From the NCBI GenBank assembly GCA_016839365.1, contig JAEOUH010000070.1:1-64000 (forward strand): 64,000 nt of DNA. Direction: 5' to 3'. This stretch comes from Candidatus Hermodarchaeota archaeon (lineage in GTDB: Archaea; Asgardarchaeota; Hermodarchaeia; Hermodarchaeales; Hermodarchaeaceae). Under the pieces are notes generated by a model that had not been told where the DNA came from, searched no databases, and saw only the letters and a list, made by a program, of their open reading frames with translations. Below are positions 4,726-51,958 of this stretch, piece by piece; the first letter of the stretch is position 1, and each line of letters opens with the position of its first letter. Both the position numbers and the translations under genes were made by a program.

Positions 4726-5712
4726 TTGGTGCTCTCAGTTATATCAATTGCAGCCATTCTCACTTTGATCAGTGGCATTCTTTCGGGTATTGGGCATTCT
4801 CTTCAGCGGTACGGACTCGATAAGTTACCCGAACTCACTCCTCGGGCATTCTATAAACGCCATATCCGGTTACTTTTTACCCTCTTCACAACTCCCATCT
4901 GGTTCTTTGGTGCCGTTCTCGCCGTCTCAGGAGCCCTAATGCGCTGGCAAGCCTTCTCCATGGGTGATGTCAGTTTTTTGAAACCCTTAACCAATATCAA
5001 CATCCTCATCGTTATCATTCTGGGGGTTCTCATATTGGGAGAGGTGATAAGACGATTCGAATGGGGAGGGATTTCTGCCCTTCTTATTGGAGTGTTTGTC
5101 CTCAGCTTATTTGCCCAAGAACGAGTCATCGACAGCTACAATATTTTCTGGTATGTTATTTTTACAATTATTTGTGTCGTACTCGTGACCACTTTCATAG
5201 TCATCGGTTCACAACTCACTAGGAGCTCTCGCGAAAAAGAGCTCATGTTTGCGATCAGCTCTGGTATCCTTTACGGGATTGCAACCATCTATCTCAAGGC
5301 AATGACCATCGAAGTCATTCAGGTCCTTGGGTACTTCAATGTCCTCGATCCCCTCTCACTCCTTACACTTTTGACACGCTATTCCTTCTGGCTCTACTTC
5401 ATCAGCTCGGTCATAGCCTATTTCCTCCTTCAATGTGCCTATTCACACCGAAGGGTTTCAGTGGCCTTCCCCGTTAATAATTCACTCTCAACCCTAGTAC
5501 CCATCATCATCGCTGTTCTCGTCTTTGGTGATTCCCTCCTTATCCTCATCAATGGCTTCATCATATTCCCCGTCTCCTACCTCCCCATCATCGGAATCAT
5601 CGCAATATTCATTGGGATTATATTGCTTCGCCGATTTCAAGGAACATCCGAAAAACCGCTAGTAGATAACTCCTCCTCAAGTGAGGAAGAAATAAAAGGA
5701 GTTTCCACATGA
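4726..5712 (+). CDS. DMT/EamA-like (NIPA-like) membrane transporter
   Basis: About 9-10 TM segments with internal duplication (GDVSFLKP / RVSVAFP; LGE / FGD). Confidence 0.75.
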   Translation: MVLSVISIAAILTLISGILSGIGHSLQRYGLDKLPELTPRAFYKRHIRLLFTLFTTPIWFFGAVLAVSGALMRWQAFSMGDVSFLKPLTNINILIVIILGVLILGEVIRRFEWGGISALLIGVFVLSLFAQERVIDSYNIFWYVIFTIICVVLVTTFIVIGSQLTRSSREKELMFAISSGILYGIATIYLKAMTIEVIQVLGYFNVLDPLSLLTLLTRYSFWLYFISSVIAYFLLQCAYSHRRVSVAFPVNNSLSTLVPIIIAVLVFGDSLLILINGFIIFPVSYLPIIGIIAIFIGIILLRRFQGTSEKPLVDNSSSSEEEIKGVST

Positions 5713-5761
5713 AATCCAATTCCTCTCAATATCTTGATACGAAATGGACAGGTGAATCTCA

Positions 5762-7078
5762 TTGCATCAATTTCTCGACCAACTGGAACAAGCATGGAAA
5801 ACGGGGTATGAGTTCATCAAGGGGAGTCCTGTAATTCTGAAACGGACCGATATAAATTCGGTCATGTCGCATTCTGGGAAAATCCTCAACGAGCGCCGCA
5901 TCCGTGAGACTCTTGCAACTACCATTGAGCTTCGAGAATTGGGCGCCGCTGCAATTACTGATGCCTCCCATCAATCGCGACCTGGACGTGCGGATTTCTA
6001 TCCAACGCTTGAACATACGCGCATCTTGAATTCTATACTTGAAATTGAGTTTCCCGATAAATACGATGAATGGGAATACGTGTTCAGTGATTCGGCCTGG
6101 GGCTTTTCCCAATTGGAATACTTAACCCGTGGTCAAAATGTCATGAGCAATAACATCCGGTTTGCCCCCTGGGAGCTCAATGTGCCCGCCCAACTTTATG
6201 ACATTCCACCTGTTCGACTCGTCGAAAAACTCCGCGACGCAGGACACCGTGTCTGCTATGTACAAGACGCTTTTCCCTCCGCCCATCGCGGAGGAGGTCA
6301 GAAAGACACATCGATGTATGCACTACCAAACTTCTTTAATCGTCGCGGAATTCCCGTGTTTCCATCTCGCAATTTCGCCGAGGAAATGATCAAATTCGCC
6401 GAACTAAACGAACTCATCCATTCCAGTAAAAAAGTCATCGTTGCCCTATTTGGAGGAAAGGTCACCGATTATCTTGATGTCTTCTCCCTTTATGAACGTC
6501 ATAAACACATCGAAATCCTTGCGGGCTCCCTACTTAGTATGGTATTTCTTAAAAGCCAACATCCCACGCTAAGTTTCGGAGTCAACGATGAACGATTCTT
6601 CCAAGACATTGGCGAAGAAGAACTCCGACAATTCAAGCAACACTTCAATAAAGAACGAGTTCACCTCGCGAAAGACCTAATCATCACCACCCCAGATGAA
6701 ATCGTCACTAAATCACTCAACGCCAAAGCGAAAATTCGCTACGAAGTGCAAGGGATTGGACCTGAAACCGTCCAGTCCTACGCAGAAGCGGTAAAAGGTG
6801 CCCAGCTCCTCATGGTCAATGGTTGCCCGTTCAATATTCGCCGGTTTGAAACCTTTGGGAAATACTTCAAGGAATTCCTTACACTGGTCCGAAACCAAAA
6901 TGGGTCCTTGAAACTGTATGAATGCGGAGGTGATGCAATCACTGCCATCAAATATTGTGGCATCAAAACTGATATCAGCTCCACAGCCGGAAAACTCGGA
7001 CTTTTGGCTCCAATGATTGAAGATAAAAGCGACCTTGAAAAATATGCTCCTGCTGTGGTTCCTCTCATTCAACGCTGA
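5762..7078 (+). CDS. divergent phosphoglycerate kinase-family protein
   Basis: PGK motifs RTDINS, RRIR, HQSRPG, NIRF, DAFPSAHR, GGKV, IGPET and GGD; C-terminal Gly loop altered. Confidence 0.78.
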   Translation: MHQFLDQLEQAWKTGYEFIKGSPVILKRTDINSVMSHSGKILNERRIRETLATTIELRELGAAAITDASHQSRPGRADFYPTLEHTRILNSILEIEFPDKYDEWEYVFSDSAWGFSQLEYLTRGQNVMSNNIRFAPWELNVPAQLYDIPPVRLVEKLRDAGHRVCYVQDAFPSAHRGGGQKDTSMYALPNFFNRRGIPVFPSRNFAEEMIKFAELNELIHSSKKVIVALFGGKVTDYLDVFSLYERHKHIEILAGSLLSMVFLKSQHPTLSFGVNDERFFQDIGEEELRQFKQHFNKERVHLAKDLIITTPDEIVTKSLNAKAKIRYEVQGIGPETVQSYAEAVKGAQLLMVNGCPFNIRRFETFGKYFKEFLTLVRNQNGSLKLYECGGDAITAIKYCGIKTDISSTAGKLGLLAPMIEDKSDLEKYAPAVVPLIQR

Positions 7079-7089
7079 CAGAATCTAGA

Positions 7090-9192
7090 CTAATCAATCG
7101 TTCTTCCACAATGGCCACAAAAACTGGCATTTGGAGTTATCGGAGCACCACAGTGGTAACAGAATCCCGTGCGAACAGGCTTTTCAGAAGGAATGTCACC
7201 ACTCTTTGTTGAAGGATAAGTCTGAGATTGGCTATTAGCAGGTGTTGGCGCAGGGGCTGGTGACCACATATACTCTTGGGATTTCCGTTTCCGCCGTTGA
7301 ACAAGTGTACATACGCTGAAGACGATGATTAAGACAATGGCTGCAATGATTATGATCCAAATGATCAAACCAAACCCCGAGATGGTTATAGAATAGTTCG
7401 CCCCAGCATTATTATCCGTGGCTACCCGACCCCCAGCATCAGTCACGGTCACATAATACGCAATAATGGACCCAGGAAGAAACGTTCCTAAAGCTCCTTC
7501 CCATTCAGAACCACTTACGAAAACCATATCAATGTGATACCATCGAGTATCACCTTGTCGTTGGTAATAGATCGTTGCGTTGACAATCCAAGTATCATCA
7601 GTAGCTTCTAGACTCACGGTGATGGGATCACCAAATCCTGGAGCTATTGGAAAGTGGCTCACCGAGCTGATAATGGGATCTGCTAGGTCTACAATGAAAT
7701 GTGATTGGATGGATAATCGACGTCCGCTCCCAGCCAATTCCATAATCAACGTGGCATTATGCGCACCTGATGTAAGCCCGACAATGTCTTGACTAGTACC
7801 CAGTCCACTATACTCCAAGACATCATCCACGAACAGTTCAAAGTGGTCAATTCCTGTTCCTGGAGCCGTTCCAGACCATTGTATAGTAACATTCGGTGTT
7901 AGAATCGCGCTACCATCTAATGGGAAAAGGAATTCCATAAAGGCTCGAATAATTGAAACATTATATGAAGCTCCAACAGCATTTTCAATGACCATTGTAA
8001 ACTGACCGGTGGATGAAACATAGGAATTAACCTCTCCCAATCCAATAGCAAACGCCCCATCATCTACCCCCGCGATGGTCCCAGGATGTGCATCGATAAC
8101 TTTTACAATTCCTTGACCTGATGGGAGCGTTTCATCAATCTCAGTAATCACAACTCCCTCACCACCTGGACCAATAATGGGAAGCGAAGCGTCATAACCT
8201 ATTTTCTTCCGAACTTCGAGAAGAAAATAATGTGTTGACGTTACATTGATTCGAATCAGATGTATACCTGTTGTGAGGAGTTCAAGAGGATCTATCACTG
8301 CAGTGAGATCCGAGGCTACTTCAACTGTATTGCTTGCGTTCACCCAACCCAGTTCTGATTTACTCCACCCCATCATATGTGAAGGTTGATCACCTAGATC
8401 CATGGGTCCATTCCAAGACCCTGCACCCATAAGCCCCCAATGACCAACAAACTGCTCTCCTTCGTAATCGACATCATACAAATCAGGTAATCCTAAGTCA
8501 TGTCCAAACTCATGGGCAAGAACACCTACAAATGACGGATCACCGGGCAGGCTCTCCTCAGGGCTTACTGATGCACGTTGGATTGGAATACCATCTGCCC
8601 AAATGGTAAAGCCCCACCATTCACTGGACCAATAATCCTGCCAATCATGACTCAGCTCTTGACCTTGGCCTGCATGAATAATAGTCACCCCATCATAAAT
8701 CGAAAAATCAACATCCGGATCTGCGAGAGCAATCGCTTCGGAAATTATGTCAAACTTGGGGTCGCTTGGGAATGATGTACCCTCCACATAATAGGCTCGA
8801 TTATGTGAAAGTGTATACCAATTTGTCGCATCACCCGCAACTTGTACTAGCCCATATGAAACCTCATCAATATAGTCATTGAGTGCAGTGATGGCATTTG
8901 TCTCCACTTCAGCTGAAGTAAAGGTATTGCCTTTATCGGGAAATTCGACCAAGATGGCAATCAGGTTTCTAGTGCCCGTAACCTGACGGGAGGAACGGTA
9001 GACTTCCGGTGGAGGAGGTCCATCAAGGCCAAGCCGTGAAGACATCGGCATCGTGGATGCCGAGAATGGTTGATTCGTCAAAGAGGTAGAAAATATACTC
9101 ATAGCAAGTGGCGCAATTAGAGAAAAGATGAGAATTGTCAATAGGGTAATTGTGGGGATACTTATTGGCTTTCGGCTTATATGATAAATCAT
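7090..9192 (-). CDS. M6 family (immune inhibitor A-like) metalloprotease, membrane-anchored, with cytoplasmic zinc ribbon
   Basis: N-terminal signal/TM, IIHAGQGQE, HEFGHDLGLPDLYD, WGLMGAGSW, C-terminal TM, then CYHC-x10-CGHC. Confidence 0.9.
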   Translation of the reverse strand: MIYHISRKPISIPTITLLTILIFSLIAPLAMSIFSTSLTNQPFSASTMPMSSRLGLDGPPPPEVYRSSRQVTGTRNLIAILVEFPDKGNTFTSAEVETNAITALNDYIDEVSYGLVQVAGDATNWYTLSHNRAYYVEGTSFPSDPKFDIISEAIALADPDVDFSIYDGVTIIHAGQGQELSHDWQDYWSSEWWGFTIWADGIPIQRASVSPEESLPGDPSFVGVLAHEFGHDLGLPDLYDVDYEGEQFVGHWGLMGAGSWNGPMDLGDQPSHMMGWSKSELGWVNASNTVEVASDLTAVIDPLELLTTGIHLIRINVTSTHYFLLEVRKKIGYDASLPIIGPGGEGVVITEIDETLPSGQGIVKVIDAHPGTIAGVDDGAFAIGLGEVNSYVSSTGQFTMVIENAVGASYNVSIIRAFMEFLFPLDGSAILTPNVTIQWSGTAPGTGIDHFELFVDDVLEYSGLGTSQDIVGLTSGAHNATLIMELAGSGRRLSIQSHFIVDLADPIISSVSHFPIAPGFGDPITVSLEATDDTWIVNATIYYQRQGDTRWYHIDMVFVSGSEWEGALGTFLPGSIIAYYVTVTDAGGRVATDNNAGANYSITISGFGLIIWIIIIAAIVLIIVFSVCTLVQRRKRKSQEYMWSPAPAPTPANSQSQTYPSTKSGDIPSEKPVRTGFCYHCGAPITPNASFCGHCGRTID

Positions 9193-46838: not shown

Positions 46839-47945
46839 CTATAGCTGGATCATCCAATCATATTTTCTTAACCCCAATGCCAGGGTGACAGAGAGCAATT
46901 GAACGCCCTGGCTCCCCCGAATATGGTTATCTAAGAACGAGTTCAAAGCGTCACGTGACGCAAAGCTTGTAAGTAGAATCAGGTTTGCCCTGTCCCCGGT
47001 TTCCAGCACCAGTTTCACTTCTTCAACTGCCCGTAGGTCTGTGTTCAGTTTTGGTAACACCTTGGCATCCACTTCCAATTGAATCAGTGCAATTACTTCC
47101 ATCCCTACTTGTTGGGGATCAACCAAGGTTGTAAACCCCTTAATCACATTATTCTGCTCGAGGCGGGAAACTCGGCTCCGCACCGTTGCGTCACTAACCT
47201 TCAATCGGCGGGCGATGTTTCGAAAAGATAAACGAGCATCTCGCTGTAGGATATTCAGAATCCGTCGATCCACATCATCCAGATCGACACGATACTTTCG
47301 CCGAGAAGGTTTTTCAGCTTCAGGGGTTGGATGAAATCCCAGATAGTGAATTATATCTCCACGATGCACCATGTTCAATCGGTAGATATAGACGGCTTGT
47401 TCCGTCATTACAGATGGCTCAGCGGTGTTCTGGCATTGAAAACATCGGAAAACTAATCGAGGCTTGGCGCCCACCGTTTTACAGTCTAGGCATTGAAAGG
47501 CTTCTTCAGATTTGTAGTCCTGCTGCTCACCGCTCAATAATTCTCCACAAGATGGACACCGTAATCCCTTATCAGTTTCATACTTCGTTCGGGGTCCAAT
47601 GAAACCACAGCTGAAATGTTCAATCACTGGATGGCGAACCAAACGGTTCTTCCCACACGAAGGGCATTGGGATTGGGGATGTAAGTCTGGCGAGGTACAC
47701 TCATGACACGTGAAAATCGACTCCGATAACTCCCCCTCTAAAATACCAGCACGACGTAATCCCTCCAGACGATCTACGGTATCCTTTGCATCCACTTCTA
47801 ACACCTTCTCAGCTTCAGGATACCGAAACCCGTACGGCGCTGCCACATCAAGTACAGGGACTACTTCCTCAATTGTCCCATCCAATAACCGTTTGATAAG
47901 CAACCACGCGCCATGGTCTTCCAATACCGAGGGTTTAAACGTCAC
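46839..47945 (-). CDS. TackOD1-like multi-zinc-ribbon domain fused to an Lrp/AsnC regulator
   Basis: GFRYP...CHEC..CPSC..EHFSCGF..CPSC..CLDC..CFQC, then LDDVDRRILNILQRDAR...TVRSRVSRL...TGD. Likely GTG start at 47945. Confidence 0.85.
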   Translation of the reverse strand: MTFKPSVLEDHGAWLLIKRLLDGTIEEVVPVLDVAAPYGFRYPEAEKVLEVDAKDTVDRLEGLRRAGILEGELSESIFTCHECTSPDLHPQSQCPSCGKNRLVRHPVIEHFSCGFIGPRTKYETDKGLRCPSCGELLSGEQQDYKSEEAFQCLDCKTVGAKPRLVFRCFQCQNTAEPSVMTEQAVYIYRLNMVHRGDIIHYLGFHPTPEAEKPSRRKYRVDLDDVDRRILNILQRDARLSFRNIARRLKVSDATVRSRVSRLEQNNVIKGFTTLVDPQQVGMEVIALIQLEVDAKVLPKLNTDLRAVEEVKLVLETGDRANLILLTSFASRDALNSFLDNHIRGSQGVQLLSVTLALGLRKYDWMIQL

Positions 47946-48089
47946 ATGCCCACCCGCCGTTGCACGATACCCATTATTCACCCGAATCGGGTGCAGATAT
48001 GCTTTGTCCTTTCTTTGAAAACCACAACATCTCAAACCCAACAACCTAGCGAAATGTAACACTTTTAAGAAGATAACAAACCACGCGCC

Positions 48090-48182
48090 TGCGCGAAATC
48101 ATATCATAATGACCTGTTTTTTCGCACCCCATATGGTATATTTTCTACGCAAATGCGCAGTTTATATTACCGGAACTACGCA
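48090..48182. promoter_or_regulatory. array of TGCG/CGCA half-sites (putative operator)
   Basis: Five half-sites, including the inverted repeat TGCGCAGTT...AACTACGCA around TTTATATT. Confidence 0.45.
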
Positions 48183-48214
48183 ATCACCGCTTAATAATTA
48201 GTTCTTCTTGGTAA

Positions 48215-48470
48215 CACAGACTCCGGAAAGCACCCTGGACGTGACGCGGATGTCCGGGCACCTCGAATAACCCTCCCGCCCGGGGAGCCCTCCAATCCTA
48301 TCCTCCCAAATCCCTCCTCCCGTTGTCCGAACCTCAGAAATTTTTTCCGAGGTTCCCGGAACCGACGAGCGTCCTGTGTCTGAGTTACCCCCCTCCTTGC
48401 GGGGATGTAGGGGGATGATCACTCAGGGACGTGCCCGCGCTCTTTGTCGGGCACCTCCACCTTTTTTCCT
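48215..48470 (+). ncRNA. putative structured small RNA 1 (anti-SD-rich)
   Basis: GC-rich stems (CCTGGAC/GTCCGGG, GAACCTC/GAGGTTC, TGAGT/ACTCA), seven CCTCC motifs, terminal hairpin GTGCCCG..CTCTTT..CGGGCAC plus T-run. Confidence 0.55.
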
Positions 48471-48510
48471 GAGACCTCAAACCACGTGCTAATAGAATCC
48501 TACTCTGGCA

Positions 48511-49242
48511 TTATTCTGCTGTTGGTTTTGAATAAAGTCTGGTAAGGACAATGCCTAGAATATTTAGTACCCATGCAGTGGCAACGAGTACGAAGGCATA
48601 CAGGACAAACGCCACGGTGAACTGCACGGCTGAAATCAACACAGCTCCAAGAAATGATAGAAAGAGCCCTATCCATCCAATCCATAGCCCACCCTTCATG
48701 GATCCCTTCATCCGTTTATTCAGTTGAATGCCAACGTACAAGGGAATCAAAAACATGTAGATTGCCCCAAGGAAAATCGCATACATCACCAAGACCAAAG
48801 GCATGGCAACGTAATTGAGCCAACCGTCTGAAACGGTGAACACTGTGAATGGATTCGGAAGAAGAAAGAGCAGAGCCACATAGACTGCGCCACCTAACAC
48901 GATGAGCAGAAATACCCATTTTCGTTTACTGAGGAAGCGGGCGCCGAGACAGAACAATATGATGAATAAGCCATGGAGCCCAGCAAACCCCCAGATCACG
49001 ATGTAAAATGGAAGCAGCTCAACAACACTTGCAGTTGCTGGCAGCATAGCCATTGATATTGCAAATACAAGATACATAAGAAGAATCGACAAGACAAACA
49101 AAAGCCCAAAGATTCTCGTCCAGCGCGTTTTGCCTTCAGCTCGGTTCACAGCAAGAATCGCAAGTAATAGAGAACCAAAGGTTATCGCACAAATCAGCAC
49201 TACAATGGCAAAATGTAGCGGTGTTTCATGAATGAAAAGCAA
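48511..49242 (-). CDS. standalone 7TM membrane protein, paralog 1
   Basis: IHETPLHF N-terminus, seven hydrophobic helices, VSDGWLNYVAMP loop; GGAGGG SD before TTG. Confidence 0.82.
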   Translation of the reverse strand: MLFIHETPLHFAIVVLICAITFGSLLLAILAVNRAEGKTRWTRIFGLLFVLSILLMYLVFAISMAMLPATASVVELLPFYIVIWGFAGLHGLFIILFCLGARFLSKRKWVFLLIVLGGAVYVALLFLLPNPFTVFTVSDGWLNYVAMPLVLVMYAIFLGAIYMFLIPLYVGIQLNKRMKGSMKGGLWIGWIGLFLSFLGAVLISAVQFTVAFVLYAFVLVATAWVLNILGIVLTRLYSKPTAE

Positions 49243-49407
49243 CAAAAATACCCTCCAGCAAGCCCTCCAACGATTTTCTATAAATACACTTCTATTTTCT
49301 CTGAGAGCAACTATCATTCAACTAAATGGTTTCGGTGAAAAAGGAAGGCAGGCCCATTTCCTGTTGATTTCAGGTTACGGGCCAGATGATGAACGGGGTT
49401 ATCCTTG

Positions 49408-50121
49408 CTAGCTTCTTTGTGTCGTTAGGAACCAGGCGATAAGCATGATTATCCAAGCAATGGATGCGAGAATGAAGGTATAGATCATGAAAGGTGCTGT
49501 GTACTGGACAAGCGCCATGAGCAGTACAGCGATGAACCACAGCAGGCTGCCCAACCAGCCGATCCAGGTCCACATCTTCATTGATCCTTCACGGGTCTTT
49601 GCCAGCCTGTAAAGGGTAAGGGTTGGAACCAGAAACAGATAGATGACTGTCAAGAAAGCGGAGTACAACAAGAAGTTTAATGGCATCGCGATGTAGTTGA
49701 CGACTCCATCTGAGACGACGCTCACTGTTGTTGGTGTCACGTAAAACCACATAATTGCAATCCAAGAAAACGTTGCCAGGATTGGAAGATACACAAGCCA
49801 CATTCGCTTCTTAAACCAGGATAGATCGAGGAGATAGAACACCAGGAAGAAAGCATGCAATCCTACAAAGGAGTATACGGCAAGATAGTAGGGGAACAGT
49901 TCATTAGCTGTTGCTGACGCCGGTAATAAGTAGACGGATGCCGCGAGGATGATGAAGGCGAAGAAACCGAAGGCGACTGTCAGGAATCCTGACCAGCCTG
50001 AAGGTGATGGTCGATCACTTCGTAGGGTGCCCATTATACCGAGTAGTGCGAAGAAGAGAAGGATGATGGCAAGCAGTAGTATGACTCCAAAATGGATAGG
50101 TGATTCATGAATGAAGAGCAA
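49408..50121 (-). CDS. standalone 7TM membrane protein, paralog 2
   Basis: IHESPIHF, LPASATANELFPYY, VSDGVVNYIAMP; GGAGGG SD before TTG 50121. Confidence 0.82.
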   Translation of the reverse strand: MLFIHESPIHFGVILLLAIILLFFALLGIMGTLRSDRPSPSGWSGFLTVAFGFFAFIILAASVYLLPASATANELFPYYLAVYSFVGLHAFFLVFYLLDLSWFKKRMWLVYLPILATFSWIAIMWFYVTPTTVSVVSDGVVNYIAMPLNFLLYSAFLTVIYLFLVPTLTLYRLAKTREGSMKMWTWIGWLGSLLWFIAVLLMALVQYTAPFMIYTFILASIAWIIMLIAWFLTTQRS

Positions 50122-50184
50122 TCCAAAGAAACCCTCCGCGCACACATCCTTGATATTTGCTATAAAAACGCTTGCTTTTCCATT

Positions 50185-50224
50185 AAAAAAGAGAGACCCG
50201 ATAACCAAATTTATTGGTTATCGG
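50185..50224 (-). terminator. hairpin plus U-tract terminator of 7TM paralog 3
   Basis: Perfect 11-bp inverted repeat CCGATAACCAA/TTGGTTATCGG followed by a T-run on the minus strand. Confidence 0.65.
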
Positions 50225-50240
50225 ATTAAATTTCACAGCG

Positions 50241-50966
50241 TTATTTTGATTTTGGCTTCGCCCGAGTAAACATCATTAAACCGATGAAAGTCAGTAGAAG
50301 TCCAACGAAACCGAGTGCAAGGATTCCCAACATGAAAGGGGCAACGAAGAACACTAAGGCCATACCCATAGCTGCGATTGTCCATAGGAGAAGTCCGACT
50401 AGAGCTATCAAGTTTCCAGTCTTCATACCGCCTTCTTGTTGTGAGATCACGCGATAGGAATGAATGAAGGGTATTATGAATAAATAGAGAACTGCGAGTA
50501 TCGCACCATAGATTACCACAATCCAGGGCATAGCTAGCCAGCTAAGAAGTCCGTCAGACACGACGAAAGCAGTAGTGGGCGTGGTGAAAAACCAAAGGAC
50601 TGCAAGAAATGAAAGGGTCGCAAGAAGAAACAGATACTTAATCCATGCAGGCGCACTAATAGATTTCGAACTGAACGCGAAGAAAACTAGGAAGAAGCCG
50701 TAGAGTGCAACACAGGACCAGGCTCCAAGATAATATGGGAGCAGTTGATCCGCTGTAGCGGCTGCCGGAAGCAGATAGATCATTGCGGCTAGGATTGCAT
50801 AAGTTCCTACAAGAAAGAAAATAACAAGGAAACTGAGCCAATGATACTCAAGATTTTTTTCCTTAGTAATTGGTGAACTAAATGACAGGAGTGCTAATAT
50901 AAGCACCACAATCAGAGATGCAATTATCATGGCGAAGTGAATTGGTGTTTCAAGAATGTACATCAT
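50241..50966 (-). CDS. standalone 7TM membrane protein, paralog 3
   Basis: ILETPIHF, LPAAATADQLLPYY, VSDGLLSWLAMP; GGAGGG SD before ATG 50966. Confidence 0.82.
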   Translation of the reverse strand: MMYILETPIHFAMIIASLIVVLILALLSFSSPITKEKNLEYHWLSFLVIFFLVGTYAILAAMIYLLPAAATADQLLPYYLGAWSCVALYGFFLVFFAFSSKSISAPAWIKYLFLLATLSFLAVLWFFTTPTTAFVVSDGLLSWLAMPWIVVIYGAILAVLYLFIIPFIHSYRVISQQEGGMKTGNLIALVGLLLWTIAAMGMALVFFVAPFMLGILALGFVGLLLTFIGLMMFTRAKPKSK

Positions 50967-51194
50967 TCCAGAGAAACCCTCCGCGCACACATCCGCTACT
51001 AACTGCTTATAAGTGGTCGCTTTTCATACTCGTAAGTTGACAAATTTTCCACCCTCGATACTCTCCCCACTATTCAGCTGCACCTCGAACCTAGCTTTTT
51101 TCCGATTCCACGGCATTTTCCGGAAAAAACGTGCAGAAGAAAAAGGAAAGCATTTTAAATTCGGTACACCCTTATAAAAGCTGGATAACGGGAG

Positions 51195-51462
51195 TTCCCC
51201 GAGGTGGAATAGAGCACAATAACTTCGCTTACACGATGAGTAAGCCATCTATCCAATCATCACTTCCACGTTCTTCGGGATGCCAGTTTCCACACACAAG
51301 ATATTAAACGAGGTAAAACCAAAACATTACAGCGACAGGATGGGGTTTCCTTTCCCTGTGTCTTTCATTCCCCTCTCCCCCTCTCCTCCTTTATGTCCTC
51401 GTTATGGACGCCCCGTCCCGCTATAGGGTGGCGCACTCTTTTGCGTCACCTTTTACTCTTTG
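51195..51462 (+). ncRNA. putative structured small RNA 2 (C/U-rich loop)
   Basis: TATA-like CTTATAAA at 51171. Stem 51331-51350/51406-51422 encloses a pyrimidine tract with CTCCTCC; terminal hairpin GGTGGCGCA-CTCTTT-TGCGTCACC plus T-run. The 5' end is uncertain. Confidence 0.5.
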
Positions 51463-51958
51463 AGAAAATGTAATGTGTCGTTTTTTGTCACCTTTTATTC
51501 TTGTCCAATCAAGACGAAGTCACACACTCGTCATGGTGATAACTTTATGACTCATCCACCTAAAGACAAAGAACCTTATCCAGTCTAAACCACCCGTAAA
51601 CATATCTTGTGAAACCTAACGGATTTCATTGAACCGCTCTAGGACACCATAGGCTAGAAGATTAGTTCTCAACATACTTGAAGGCCCAAAACAAGAATTT
51701 TCATTGGCACTACTTTTGCCAATCTATTTGAAATACACTCAATCGTGTTTGAAATGTCAAAAATTGAAATTAGTTCTGGTGAGATTTTGAAGCATTTCCT
51801 GTAATGTGACCCAAAAAGCGACAAATCAAGTGGTATTCGTGTTATCTAACACCATCCACAAGGGGACCGAAGTGAAAGTGGTAGTTGAAGAAAACGAGTT
51901 TAAAGACTAAGTATGGGGCACTTGGTGTATATGCCTTCTTAAAATCAAAGGTGATTGA

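Follow-up and report, generated by a model that had tools for sequence, protein, structure and literature searches.

The gap between a TackOD1-AsnC gene and a cluster of 7TM genes in the Hermodarchaeota contig analysed here (the window, a stretch of 64,000 nucleotides) very likely holds a genuine RNA gene of a new, uncatalogued family. The predicted product, which we call sRNA 1, is a structured non-coding RNA of about 243–260 nt that is confined to Hermodarchaeia, a class of Asgard archaea. Given the copies of CCUCC in its large open loop, it probably controls translation.

Asgard archaea are the closest prokaryotic relatives of eukaryotes, and almost nothing is known about their regulatory RNAs. 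The RNA described here, about 250 nt long, is found lineage-wide and supported by covariation, and its design is unusual in that long-range helices present a multivalent anti-Shine-Dalgarno (anti-SD) strand. Genetic linkage connects it with another RNA built in the same way and with a regulator of the zinc-ribbon/Lrp type. If it masks ribosome-binding sites (RBS), a mode of control demonstrated so far among archaea in just a few Methanosarcina sRNAs would extend, in multivalent form, to the Asgard archaea; if it acts as the scaffold of a ribonucleoprotein (RNP), it would represent a new archaeal RNP. Either way, the RNA constitutes a concrete, alignable family, which can be added to RNA databases and searched for in metatranscriptomes.

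A new RNA family in Hermodarchaeia

For the host of the window, class, order and family coincide and comprise 19 species genomes in two genera, here called g1 and g2. BLAST searches with the element yielded matches in both genera, at 67–91% identity. We built a covariance model from 12 copies (R1), which matched the window at 48200–48470 with 277.9 bits and found one full-length copy in each of 13 of the 19 genomes, with 142–287 bits, but no copy in 132 other genomes of the phylum. Searches of genome contigs with a 20-base gapped pattern returned only the same Hermodarchaeota genomes and 8 chance matches in bacteria, and metagenome contigs added only 2–3 near copies. The public records that contain the invariant motif of the element are metagenome-assembled genomes (MAGs) of Candidatus Hermodarchaeota / Promethearchaeota.

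None of the models in Rfam 15 matched the window at the gathering score, and the region 47950–48600 had no Rfam match on either strand at E-values up to 10. An earlier note on this DNA, made from the sequence alone, had reported that SRP and RNase P signatures are absent, and this is borne out by the location of both RNAs on other contigs of the genome: SRP RNA at C19:70307-70647 (123.7 bits) and RNase P RNA at C80:3030-3407 (175 bits). The models tested for these two RNAs (RF01857, RF00373) had no match at the sRNA 1 locus. A likeness to the U6 ACAGAGA/AGC elements or to a telomerase template, which we also considered, found no support and no Rfam match.

The same note had named conservation of a 74-aa minus-strand open reading frame (ORF) as an observation that would speak against an RNA gene. 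In relatives this frame is split, and the C-rich tract of the homologues contains 1- and 2-nt indels. Since the minus-strand ORF is broken and the tract carries such indels, we consider the element non-coding, and we rejected a small protein gene on the same grounds, there being no conserved open frame. The proposal of a stand-alone, structured non-coding RNA on the plus strand, matching nothing in Rfam, is thus supported.

Strand, promoter and ends

The locus comprises the following features, listed by position in the window unless stated otherwise:

46839–48062, minus strand: gene for a protein with TackOD1 and an AsnC-type HTH (Pfam matches), divergent from the RNA
48084–48095: GC-rich palindrome CGCGCCTGCGCG in the divergent promoter region, conserved in g1 and reading TGCGCAGCTGCGCA in g2
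48145–48160: palindromic box CTACGCAAATGCGCAG, kept ahead of the RNA gene in g1 and g2
48174–48182: half-site AACTACGCA, conserved in both genera, with spacers that vary
48191–48200, plus strand: TATA-like box TTAATAATTA, 25 nt ahead of 48225
48225–48467, plus strand: most likely extent of sRNA 1, about 243 nt, with a predicted 5' end
48511–50990, minus strand: three tandem 7TM paralogs
51183–51465, plus strand: sRNA 2, uncatalogued, with its promoter region at 51100–51160
G000:C1:12585, plus strand: fourth 7TM paralog, elsewhere in the genome

A TATA-like box at calibrated spacing and, at the other end, a T-run behind the terminal hairpin suggest that the plus strand may be transcribed as a unit of its own, from an archaeal promoter. 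At the promoters of SRP RNA, RNase P RNA and sRNA 2 in this genome, the TATA box precedes the RNA start by about 21–26 nt, and from this calibration we predict a start near 48225, at GGAAAGCACC. The A/T box of most relatives has the sequence AGTATTATTT and is shifted downstream by about 8 nt. By the same spacing, the transcript would not include the 5' strand of P1, a possible outer helix (see below); a genuine P1 would require a start at 48211 or further upstream. At the other end, a T-run at 48462–48467 closes the element. T-runs follow the terminal hairpin in most copies, in the plus sense only, and the transcript likely ends with the terminal hairpin and T6.

Read in the plus sense, the helices contain 55 G·U and 27 A·C. 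We favour the plus strand because of these counts, the terminal T-run and the sibling RNA, sRNA 2.

Long-range helices close a large loop

The predicted fold comprises these elements:

48211–48221 with 48378–48388, plus strand: possible outer helix P1, 5' strand GTAACACAGAC
48225–48234, plus strand: 5' box GGAAAGCACC (GGGAAGCACC in relatives), nearly invariant in our alignment (A1)
48237–48241 (GGACG) with 48370–48374 (CGTCC), plus strand: helix P2, 2 of 5 pairs changed on both sides
48246–48249 (GCGG) with 48362–48365 (CCGA), plus strand: helix P3, 1 of 4 pairs changed on both sides
48254–48265 (CCGGGCACCTCG) with 48348–48359 (CGAGGTTCCCGG), plus strand: helix P4, 9 of 12 pairs changed on both sides
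48266–48347, plus strand: loop of about 80 nt, rich in pyrimidines and closed by P4, here with five CCUCC and hairpin P5
about 48274–48286, plus strand: P5, a small hairpin in the loop
48320–48335, plus strand: 16-mer CCGTTGTCCGAACCTC (as RNA, CCGUUGUCCGAACCUC), identical in every full-length copy
48341–48346, plus strand: internal U-run of the loop (T6), just 5' of the 3' strand of P4
48378–48420, plus strand: 3' domain, consisting of GTCTGAGTTAC, P6 and then the G-box
48389–48405, plus strand: P6, a hairpin of a C-run and GGGG
48409–48420, plus strand: G-box AGGGGGATGATC, near-invariant (RNA form AGGGGGAUGA(C/U)C)
48431–48467, plus strand: terminal hairpin GTGCCCG/CGGGCAC followed by CTCCACC and T6, 3 of 7 pairs changed on both sides

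The stacked long-range helices P2–P4 would join the 5' part of the RNA to its middle. Across homologues, P3 reads (U/G)CGG/CCGA, and P4 takes the form CCGGGCACCUCG/CGAGGUUCCCGG as RNA. Pairing covers 86.5% of the cells of the model-fitted alignment, compared to 34–50% when the partners are slid against each other, and 18 pairs show changes on both sides, compared to 5–11 with slid partners; none of 500 shuffles reached the observed value. A MAFFT alignment gave similar pairing statistics. P4 has been compensated independently several times, as CCUU/AAGG (G014), as GGCUC/GAGCC (G004 and G005) and as CCCCC/GGGGG (genus g2). A local hairpin around the U-run, GAACCUC/GAGGUUC, would compete with this helix; we prefer P4, because the compensatory changes fit only the long-range pairing.

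Within the loop, AGCCCUCC, GUCCCUCCC and AAAUCCCUCCUCCC form conserved units. All copies have a T-rich tract of 4–8 T at the position of the internal U-run. Judging from its sequence, this run is a possible site for an Sm-like protein or a partial terminator, and a tract of T6–T8 could end archaeal transcription early.

In most g1 copies, helix P1 would form 10 of 11 pairs; about 85% of its cells are paired, and two-sided changes are almost absent. GGUUAC has two mutually exclusive candidate partners, the 5' GUAAC in P1 or AUGACC of the G-box in an alternative helix, P6L; each of the two helices is well paired, without two-sided changes. A reading of GGGGGAUGA(C/U)C as K-turn or C/D box was discarded, since the 1n A and the GA of the opposite strand are not conserved in g2.

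The 3' part of the RNA varies in two genomes. The copy in G005 lacks the G-box and the terminal hairpin. G016 has an additional partial copy that consists of the 3' domain only (C397, 1241–1345, minus strand; CGCCCC…GCGGGGAGAAGGGGGAUGACC), about 400 nt downstream of its full RNA, from which the 3' domain is seen to act as a separable module.

CCUCC motifs are exposed in the loop

The core of the anti-SD sequence at the 3' end of 16S rRNA is CCUCCU, to which the repeated unit of sRNA 1, CCCUCC, adds one C in front. The earlier note had counted seven CCTCC between 48272 and 48458. This count is correct: on the plus strand, the motif starts at 48272, 48289, 48302, 48313, 48316, 48392 and 48454, where about 0.2 would be expected (139 CCTCC on both strands of the window, or about 1.1 per kb and strand, scaled to 187 nt). 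When the 271-nt element was shuffled by mononucleotides, it contained 0.93 CCTCC on average and 4 at most. The multiplicity is conserved, with 2–7 CCUCC per full-length homologue against 0.4–0.9 expected.

The note had also placed the motifs mostly in a segment between strong stems. This holds for five of the seven, which lie in the open loop; the motifs at 48392 and 48454 belong to stems or adjoin them. In unconstrained folding, the five loop motifs have probabilities of being unpaired of 0.63–0.98, compared to 0.07 at 48392 and 0.21 at 48454, and in all 14 of 14 homologues the loop motifs range from 0.6 to 0.98. Exposure of several anti-SD-like motifs between stems is supported by unconstrained folding, together with the helices that close the loop.

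The CCCUCC blocks are conserved and vary in unit number, with an additional unit in G017 and an extension in G004. Each copy contains 3–5 unpaired CCCUCC, complementary to SD sequences (the 16S tail being CCUCCU). In relatives, the 16S rRNA reads ...GGAUCACCUCCU at its 3' end; the MAG to which the window belongs has no assembled 16S gene. CACCUCC at 48452–48458 is identical to the 16S 3' end, ...AUCACCUCCU; it is mostly paired in the prediction (0.21 unpaired) and missing from genus g2 and from G005. As a separate observation on the rRNA of this class, the 16S gene of G005 (L074, G005:C71:619-4212) spans 3.6 kb for a model of 1.48 kb, which points to large insertions or introns.

Gene neighbourhood and a sibling RNA

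In genus g1, the order of genes is TackOD1-AsnC (divergent), sRNA 1, one to three 7TM genes (convergent) and sRNA 2. In g2 it is RidA, ferredoxin and then sRNA 1 and sRNA 2 in tandem, without 7TM genes (0 of 4 genomes); the g2 orthologue of the TackOD1-AsnC gene is on another contig.

sRNA 2 is present in 14 of the 19 genomes of the class, always near sRNA 1. Its closing stem covaries (GGAUGGGG/CCCCAUCC in g1, GGAUAGAG/CUCUAUCC in g2) and encloses a pyrimidine-rich loop of 55 nt that is invariant across both genera (…UCAUUCCCCUCUCCCCCUCUCCUCCUUUAUGUCCUC…). Upstream it has a palindrome, TTCCG-N16-CGGAA, and a clear plus-strand TATA box, ATTTTAAAT, and it ends in a hairpin and T7. The two RNAs thus share the lineage, the strand, a covarying stem, a pyrimidine-rich loop and a terminal hairpin with a T-run. 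They differ in that sRNA 2 has another loop sequence (UCAUUCCCCUCUCCCCCUCUCCUCCUUUAUGUCCUC), contains a single CCUCC and survives in G011, a genome that has lost sRNA 1. Upstream of sRNA 2 in the window, GCACCTCGAACCTAGCTTTTTTCC (51080–51103, plus strand) resembles GAACCTCAGAAATTTTTTCC of sRNA 1 (48329–48348), and this stretch could be left over from a tandem arrangement like that of g2.

Upstream boxes and a candidate regulator

The upstream palindrome CTACGCAAWTGCGYAG, the half-site and the GC-rich palindrome are retained in both genera. The boxes at 48145–48182 are a candidate operator at which a transcription factor would act on the RNA gene, and the conserved palindromic boxes probably control its transcription. 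Their form (48084–48095 and 48145–48182) is typical of the operators of dimeric Lrp-type factors, and the protein encoded next to them, TackOD1-AsnC, is a candidate for the factor that would act there, with CTACGCAAWTGCGTAG as its putative DNA site.

The TackOD1-AsnC gene adjoins the RNA throughout g1. Among the 19 genomes, which are related to each other so that the counts are not independent, 13 have both the RNA and the regulator, none has the RNA without the regulator, 2 have the regulator without the RNA (both fragmented MAGs), and 4 have neither. In G011 the RNA and the regulator gene have been deleted together (L094, G011:C2:146000-160000, at about 5240–7460), leaving the last 36 codons of the regulator, and the genome keeps two 7TM genes with GGAGGG leaders as well as sRNA 2. 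We found no ACGCA-type boxes upstream of the regulator orthologue in g2; because of this, it is co-occurrence alone that assigns the regulator to the RNA. For the same lack of a box, we rejected autoregulation of the g2 orthologue via the same boxes.

Two further observations concern this region. Conservation of the upstream boxes extends to genomes in which the regulator gene lies elsewhere. In addition, a conserved TATA-like sequence, CTTTTAAG (48062–48069), lies at the GTG that opens the longest TackOD1-AsnC ORF (region 48030–48069, minus strand), because of which the true start of the regulator is probably near 48041 (TTG); its mRNA is possibly leaderless.

Candidate targets

The earlier note had noticed that sRNA 1 is complementary to the leaders of the neighbouring 7TM genes and had suggested specific pairing with them. 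The complementarity itself is exact. AGCCCTCCAA occurs on the plus strand both at 48286–48295 and at 49261–49270, and since the leader of paralog 1 is on the minus strand, a plus-strand RNA is complementary to it; likewise, the leaders of paralogs 2 and 3 contain GGAGGGUU, to which AACCCTCC (48269–48276) is complementary. The leaders are conserved in all four paralogs, with a TATA box followed by GC-GGAGGGUUUCUnUGGA-AUG. As for the genes themselves, the true 7TM starts (M-L/M-F/Y-I-H/L-E-T/S-P) are about 25–30 codons inside the longest ORFs.

Several findings speak against specific pairing with these leaders. AACCCUCC is limited to this genome and its nearest relatives and missing from most homologues. 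The 10-nt match to paralog 1 decays to 7 nt in the closest relative, without a compensating change. The 7TM family is found in 11 of 14 genomes of g1 and in 0 of 4 of g2, a genus that has the RNA, and G011 has kept GGAGGG leaders, even a double one, after losing the RNA. We therefore rejected the 7TM leaders as conserved targets.

Complement matches to the RNA across the genome did not yield an extended antisense target either: they were at most 13 nt long, those of 10–13 nt were at chance level, and 10-mers matched 1394 times, compared to about 1100 expected, which is about chance. Initiation led by SD sequences is common in this genome, as GGAGG stands 3–13 nt ahead of the start codon of an ORF of 80 aa or more at 499 sites. 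Among these 499 candidate initiation regions, the leader of paralog 1 ranks 11th, and those of paralogs 2 and 3 are within the top 20% of all sites and are unremarkable. GGAGG is followed by G in 18% of the regions; GGAGGG is thus not a preferred form of the SD sequence. Comparisons of the sRNA 1 and sRNA 2 loops with 16S and 23S rRNA by RNAduplex gave no better pairing than shuffled loops, and rRNA was rejected as a target.

Possible modes of action

The best reading of these data, which we advance tentatively and with less than even confidence, is that sRNA 1 would act in trans by masking SD sites. By pairing with GGAGG(G) ribosome-binding sites, its exposed CCCUCC units would bar 30S subunits from these sites, possibly on several mRNAs or at several sites simultaneously; the neighbouring 7TM genes would not be conserved targets. 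We favour SD masking because an exact, repeated anti-SD core is held single-stranded by a covarying scaffold. What counts against this inference is that a CCUCC-rich RNA is by construction complementary to any strong SD sequence; moreover, no specific target stands out, with complement matches at chance level. SD pairing also leaves the 16-mer, the G-box, the U-run and the loop of sRNA 2 unexplained, which makes a protein-binding scaffold or sponge a serious rival and the main one, if somewhat less likely. Here the loop, 16-mer, U-run and G-box would bind candidate KH-type poly(C) or Sm-like proteins, and the RNA would titrate or assemble these proteins instead of pairing with mRNAs. The conservation of the 16-mer (invariant) and of the G-box (near-invariant) hints at tertiary contacts or a protein partner, and strict invariance without a pairing partner recurs in the 55 nt of sRNA 2. 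The varying number of CCCUCC units, the conserved U-run inside the loop, the genome devoid of an extended antisense target and the failure of either loop to pair with rRNA better than its shuffled versions also agree with a scaffold. Yet a protein site would not need the exact anti-SD core that is repeated in the loop, and partners of a CsrA-type sponge are absent. Combining both RNAs, one may further conceive of a two-RNA system of one Asgard lineage, in which sRNA 1 and sRNA 2 would each use a covarying stem to present a long, invariant or near-invariant pyrimidine strand as a platform for a conserved protein machine (such as a eukaryote-like RNP of KH or Sm type) under the TackOD1-AsnC regulator, and so a new archaeal RNP, not a classical antisense regulator; we regard this as speculative and improbable.

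The remaining readings are weaker still. Some factors recognise the anti-SD tail of 16S rRNA, examples being 30S maturation factors of the Pno1/Dim2 or Nob1 type, and the RNA could mimic this tail, its CCUCC units and the 3' CACCUCC serving as decoys for putative tail-binding factors and tuning ribosome biogenesis or initiation. The identity of CACCUCC (48452–48458) with the 16S 3' end and the several copies of CCUCC would fit, but the terminal CACCUCC is mostly paired and absent from g2 and G005, and the conserved units of the loop are CCCUCC, which differs from the 16S context, so that we consider such a mimic very improbable. We place below it the possibility that the functional transcript comes from the minus strand, as an RNA rich in G that would contain GGAGG repeats and possibly form G-quadruplexes: the 3' UTR of 7TM paralog 1, the leader of the regulator gene or a sponge for GGA-type proteins. 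Both flanking genes are on this strand, the fold z-scores of the two strands are about equal (−1.88 for minus, −1.96 for plus), a terminator-like hairpin is found at 48096–48081, and the C·A mismatch of the upstream palindrome would become a G·U pair. The excess of G·U over A·C (55 to 27), by contrast, is in the plus sense, a T-run follows the element in the plus sense and none in the minus sense, and in g2 the element has neither flanking gene but stands in tandem and co-oriented with sRNA 2. A multi-GGA protein sponge on the other strand, which the earlier note had offered as an alternative, is unlikely in particular, as CsrA (PF02599) was not found in this genome (84% complete) and the strand evidence favours plus. 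Least probable of all, to the point where we give it hardly any credence, is a DNA-level regulatory region without an RNA gene, that is, an operator array between divergent and convergent genes. The palindromic boxes just upstream would suit it, and it is at odds with compensatory changes that keep the pairing of helix strands 100–130 nt apart, with conservation of the element in the other gene context of g2 and with the hairpin and T-run at its end.

Comparison with known RNAs

C-rich sRNAs that target SD sequences in Firmicutes (RsaE/RoxS type) are about 100 nt long and carry CCCC motifs in hairpin loops and linkers; their unpaired C-rich stretches pair with the G-rich SD regions of several mRNAs. 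sRNA 1 likewise has C-rich stretches, predicted to be unpaired, that are complementary to SD regions. It differs in being archaeal rather than bacterial and about 250 nt long, and we found no homology in Rfam.

Within archaea, the closest counterparts are two intergenic sRNAs of Methanosarcina mazei, sRNA41 and sRNA154, which mask ribosome-binding sites, sRNA41 at several sites, as summarised in PMC5867862 (citing Buddeweg et al. 2017). Going by that summary, they and sRNA 1 have in common that they are archaeal and intergenic, with their own promoter (predicted for sRNA 1), and that unpaired sequence complementary to the RBS is proposed to repress translation. sRNA 1 is larger (about 250 nt), comes from another phylum (Asgard) with no sequence or structure relation shown, and presents 3–5 motifs in one loop closed by long-range pairing, in place of the hairpin loops of sRNA41 and sRNA154.

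The repeated motif has its nearest parallel in the cuckoo or alpha-r14 RNAs of Alphaproteobacteria (CcsR1-4, RSs0680, NfeR1, SmelC397), which consist of 2–4 adjacent hairpins with CCUCCUCCC in each loop (PMC4615179). sRNA 1 resembles these RNAs in its repeated anti-SD-like pyrimidine motif, on which sequence conservation centres, and in a unit number that differs between members; even the 9-mer CCUCCUCCC occurs, at 48313–48321. It occurs only once, however, and is variable among homologues, and the motifs of sRNA 1 share one loop of about 80 nt. Cuckoo RNAs are bacterial, whereas sRNA 1 belongs to one archaeal class and matched no Rfam model at E-values up to 10. As neither the adjacent hairpins nor the alphaproteobacterial distribution is found in sRNA 1, we rejected membership in this family and conclude that the likeness is convergent.
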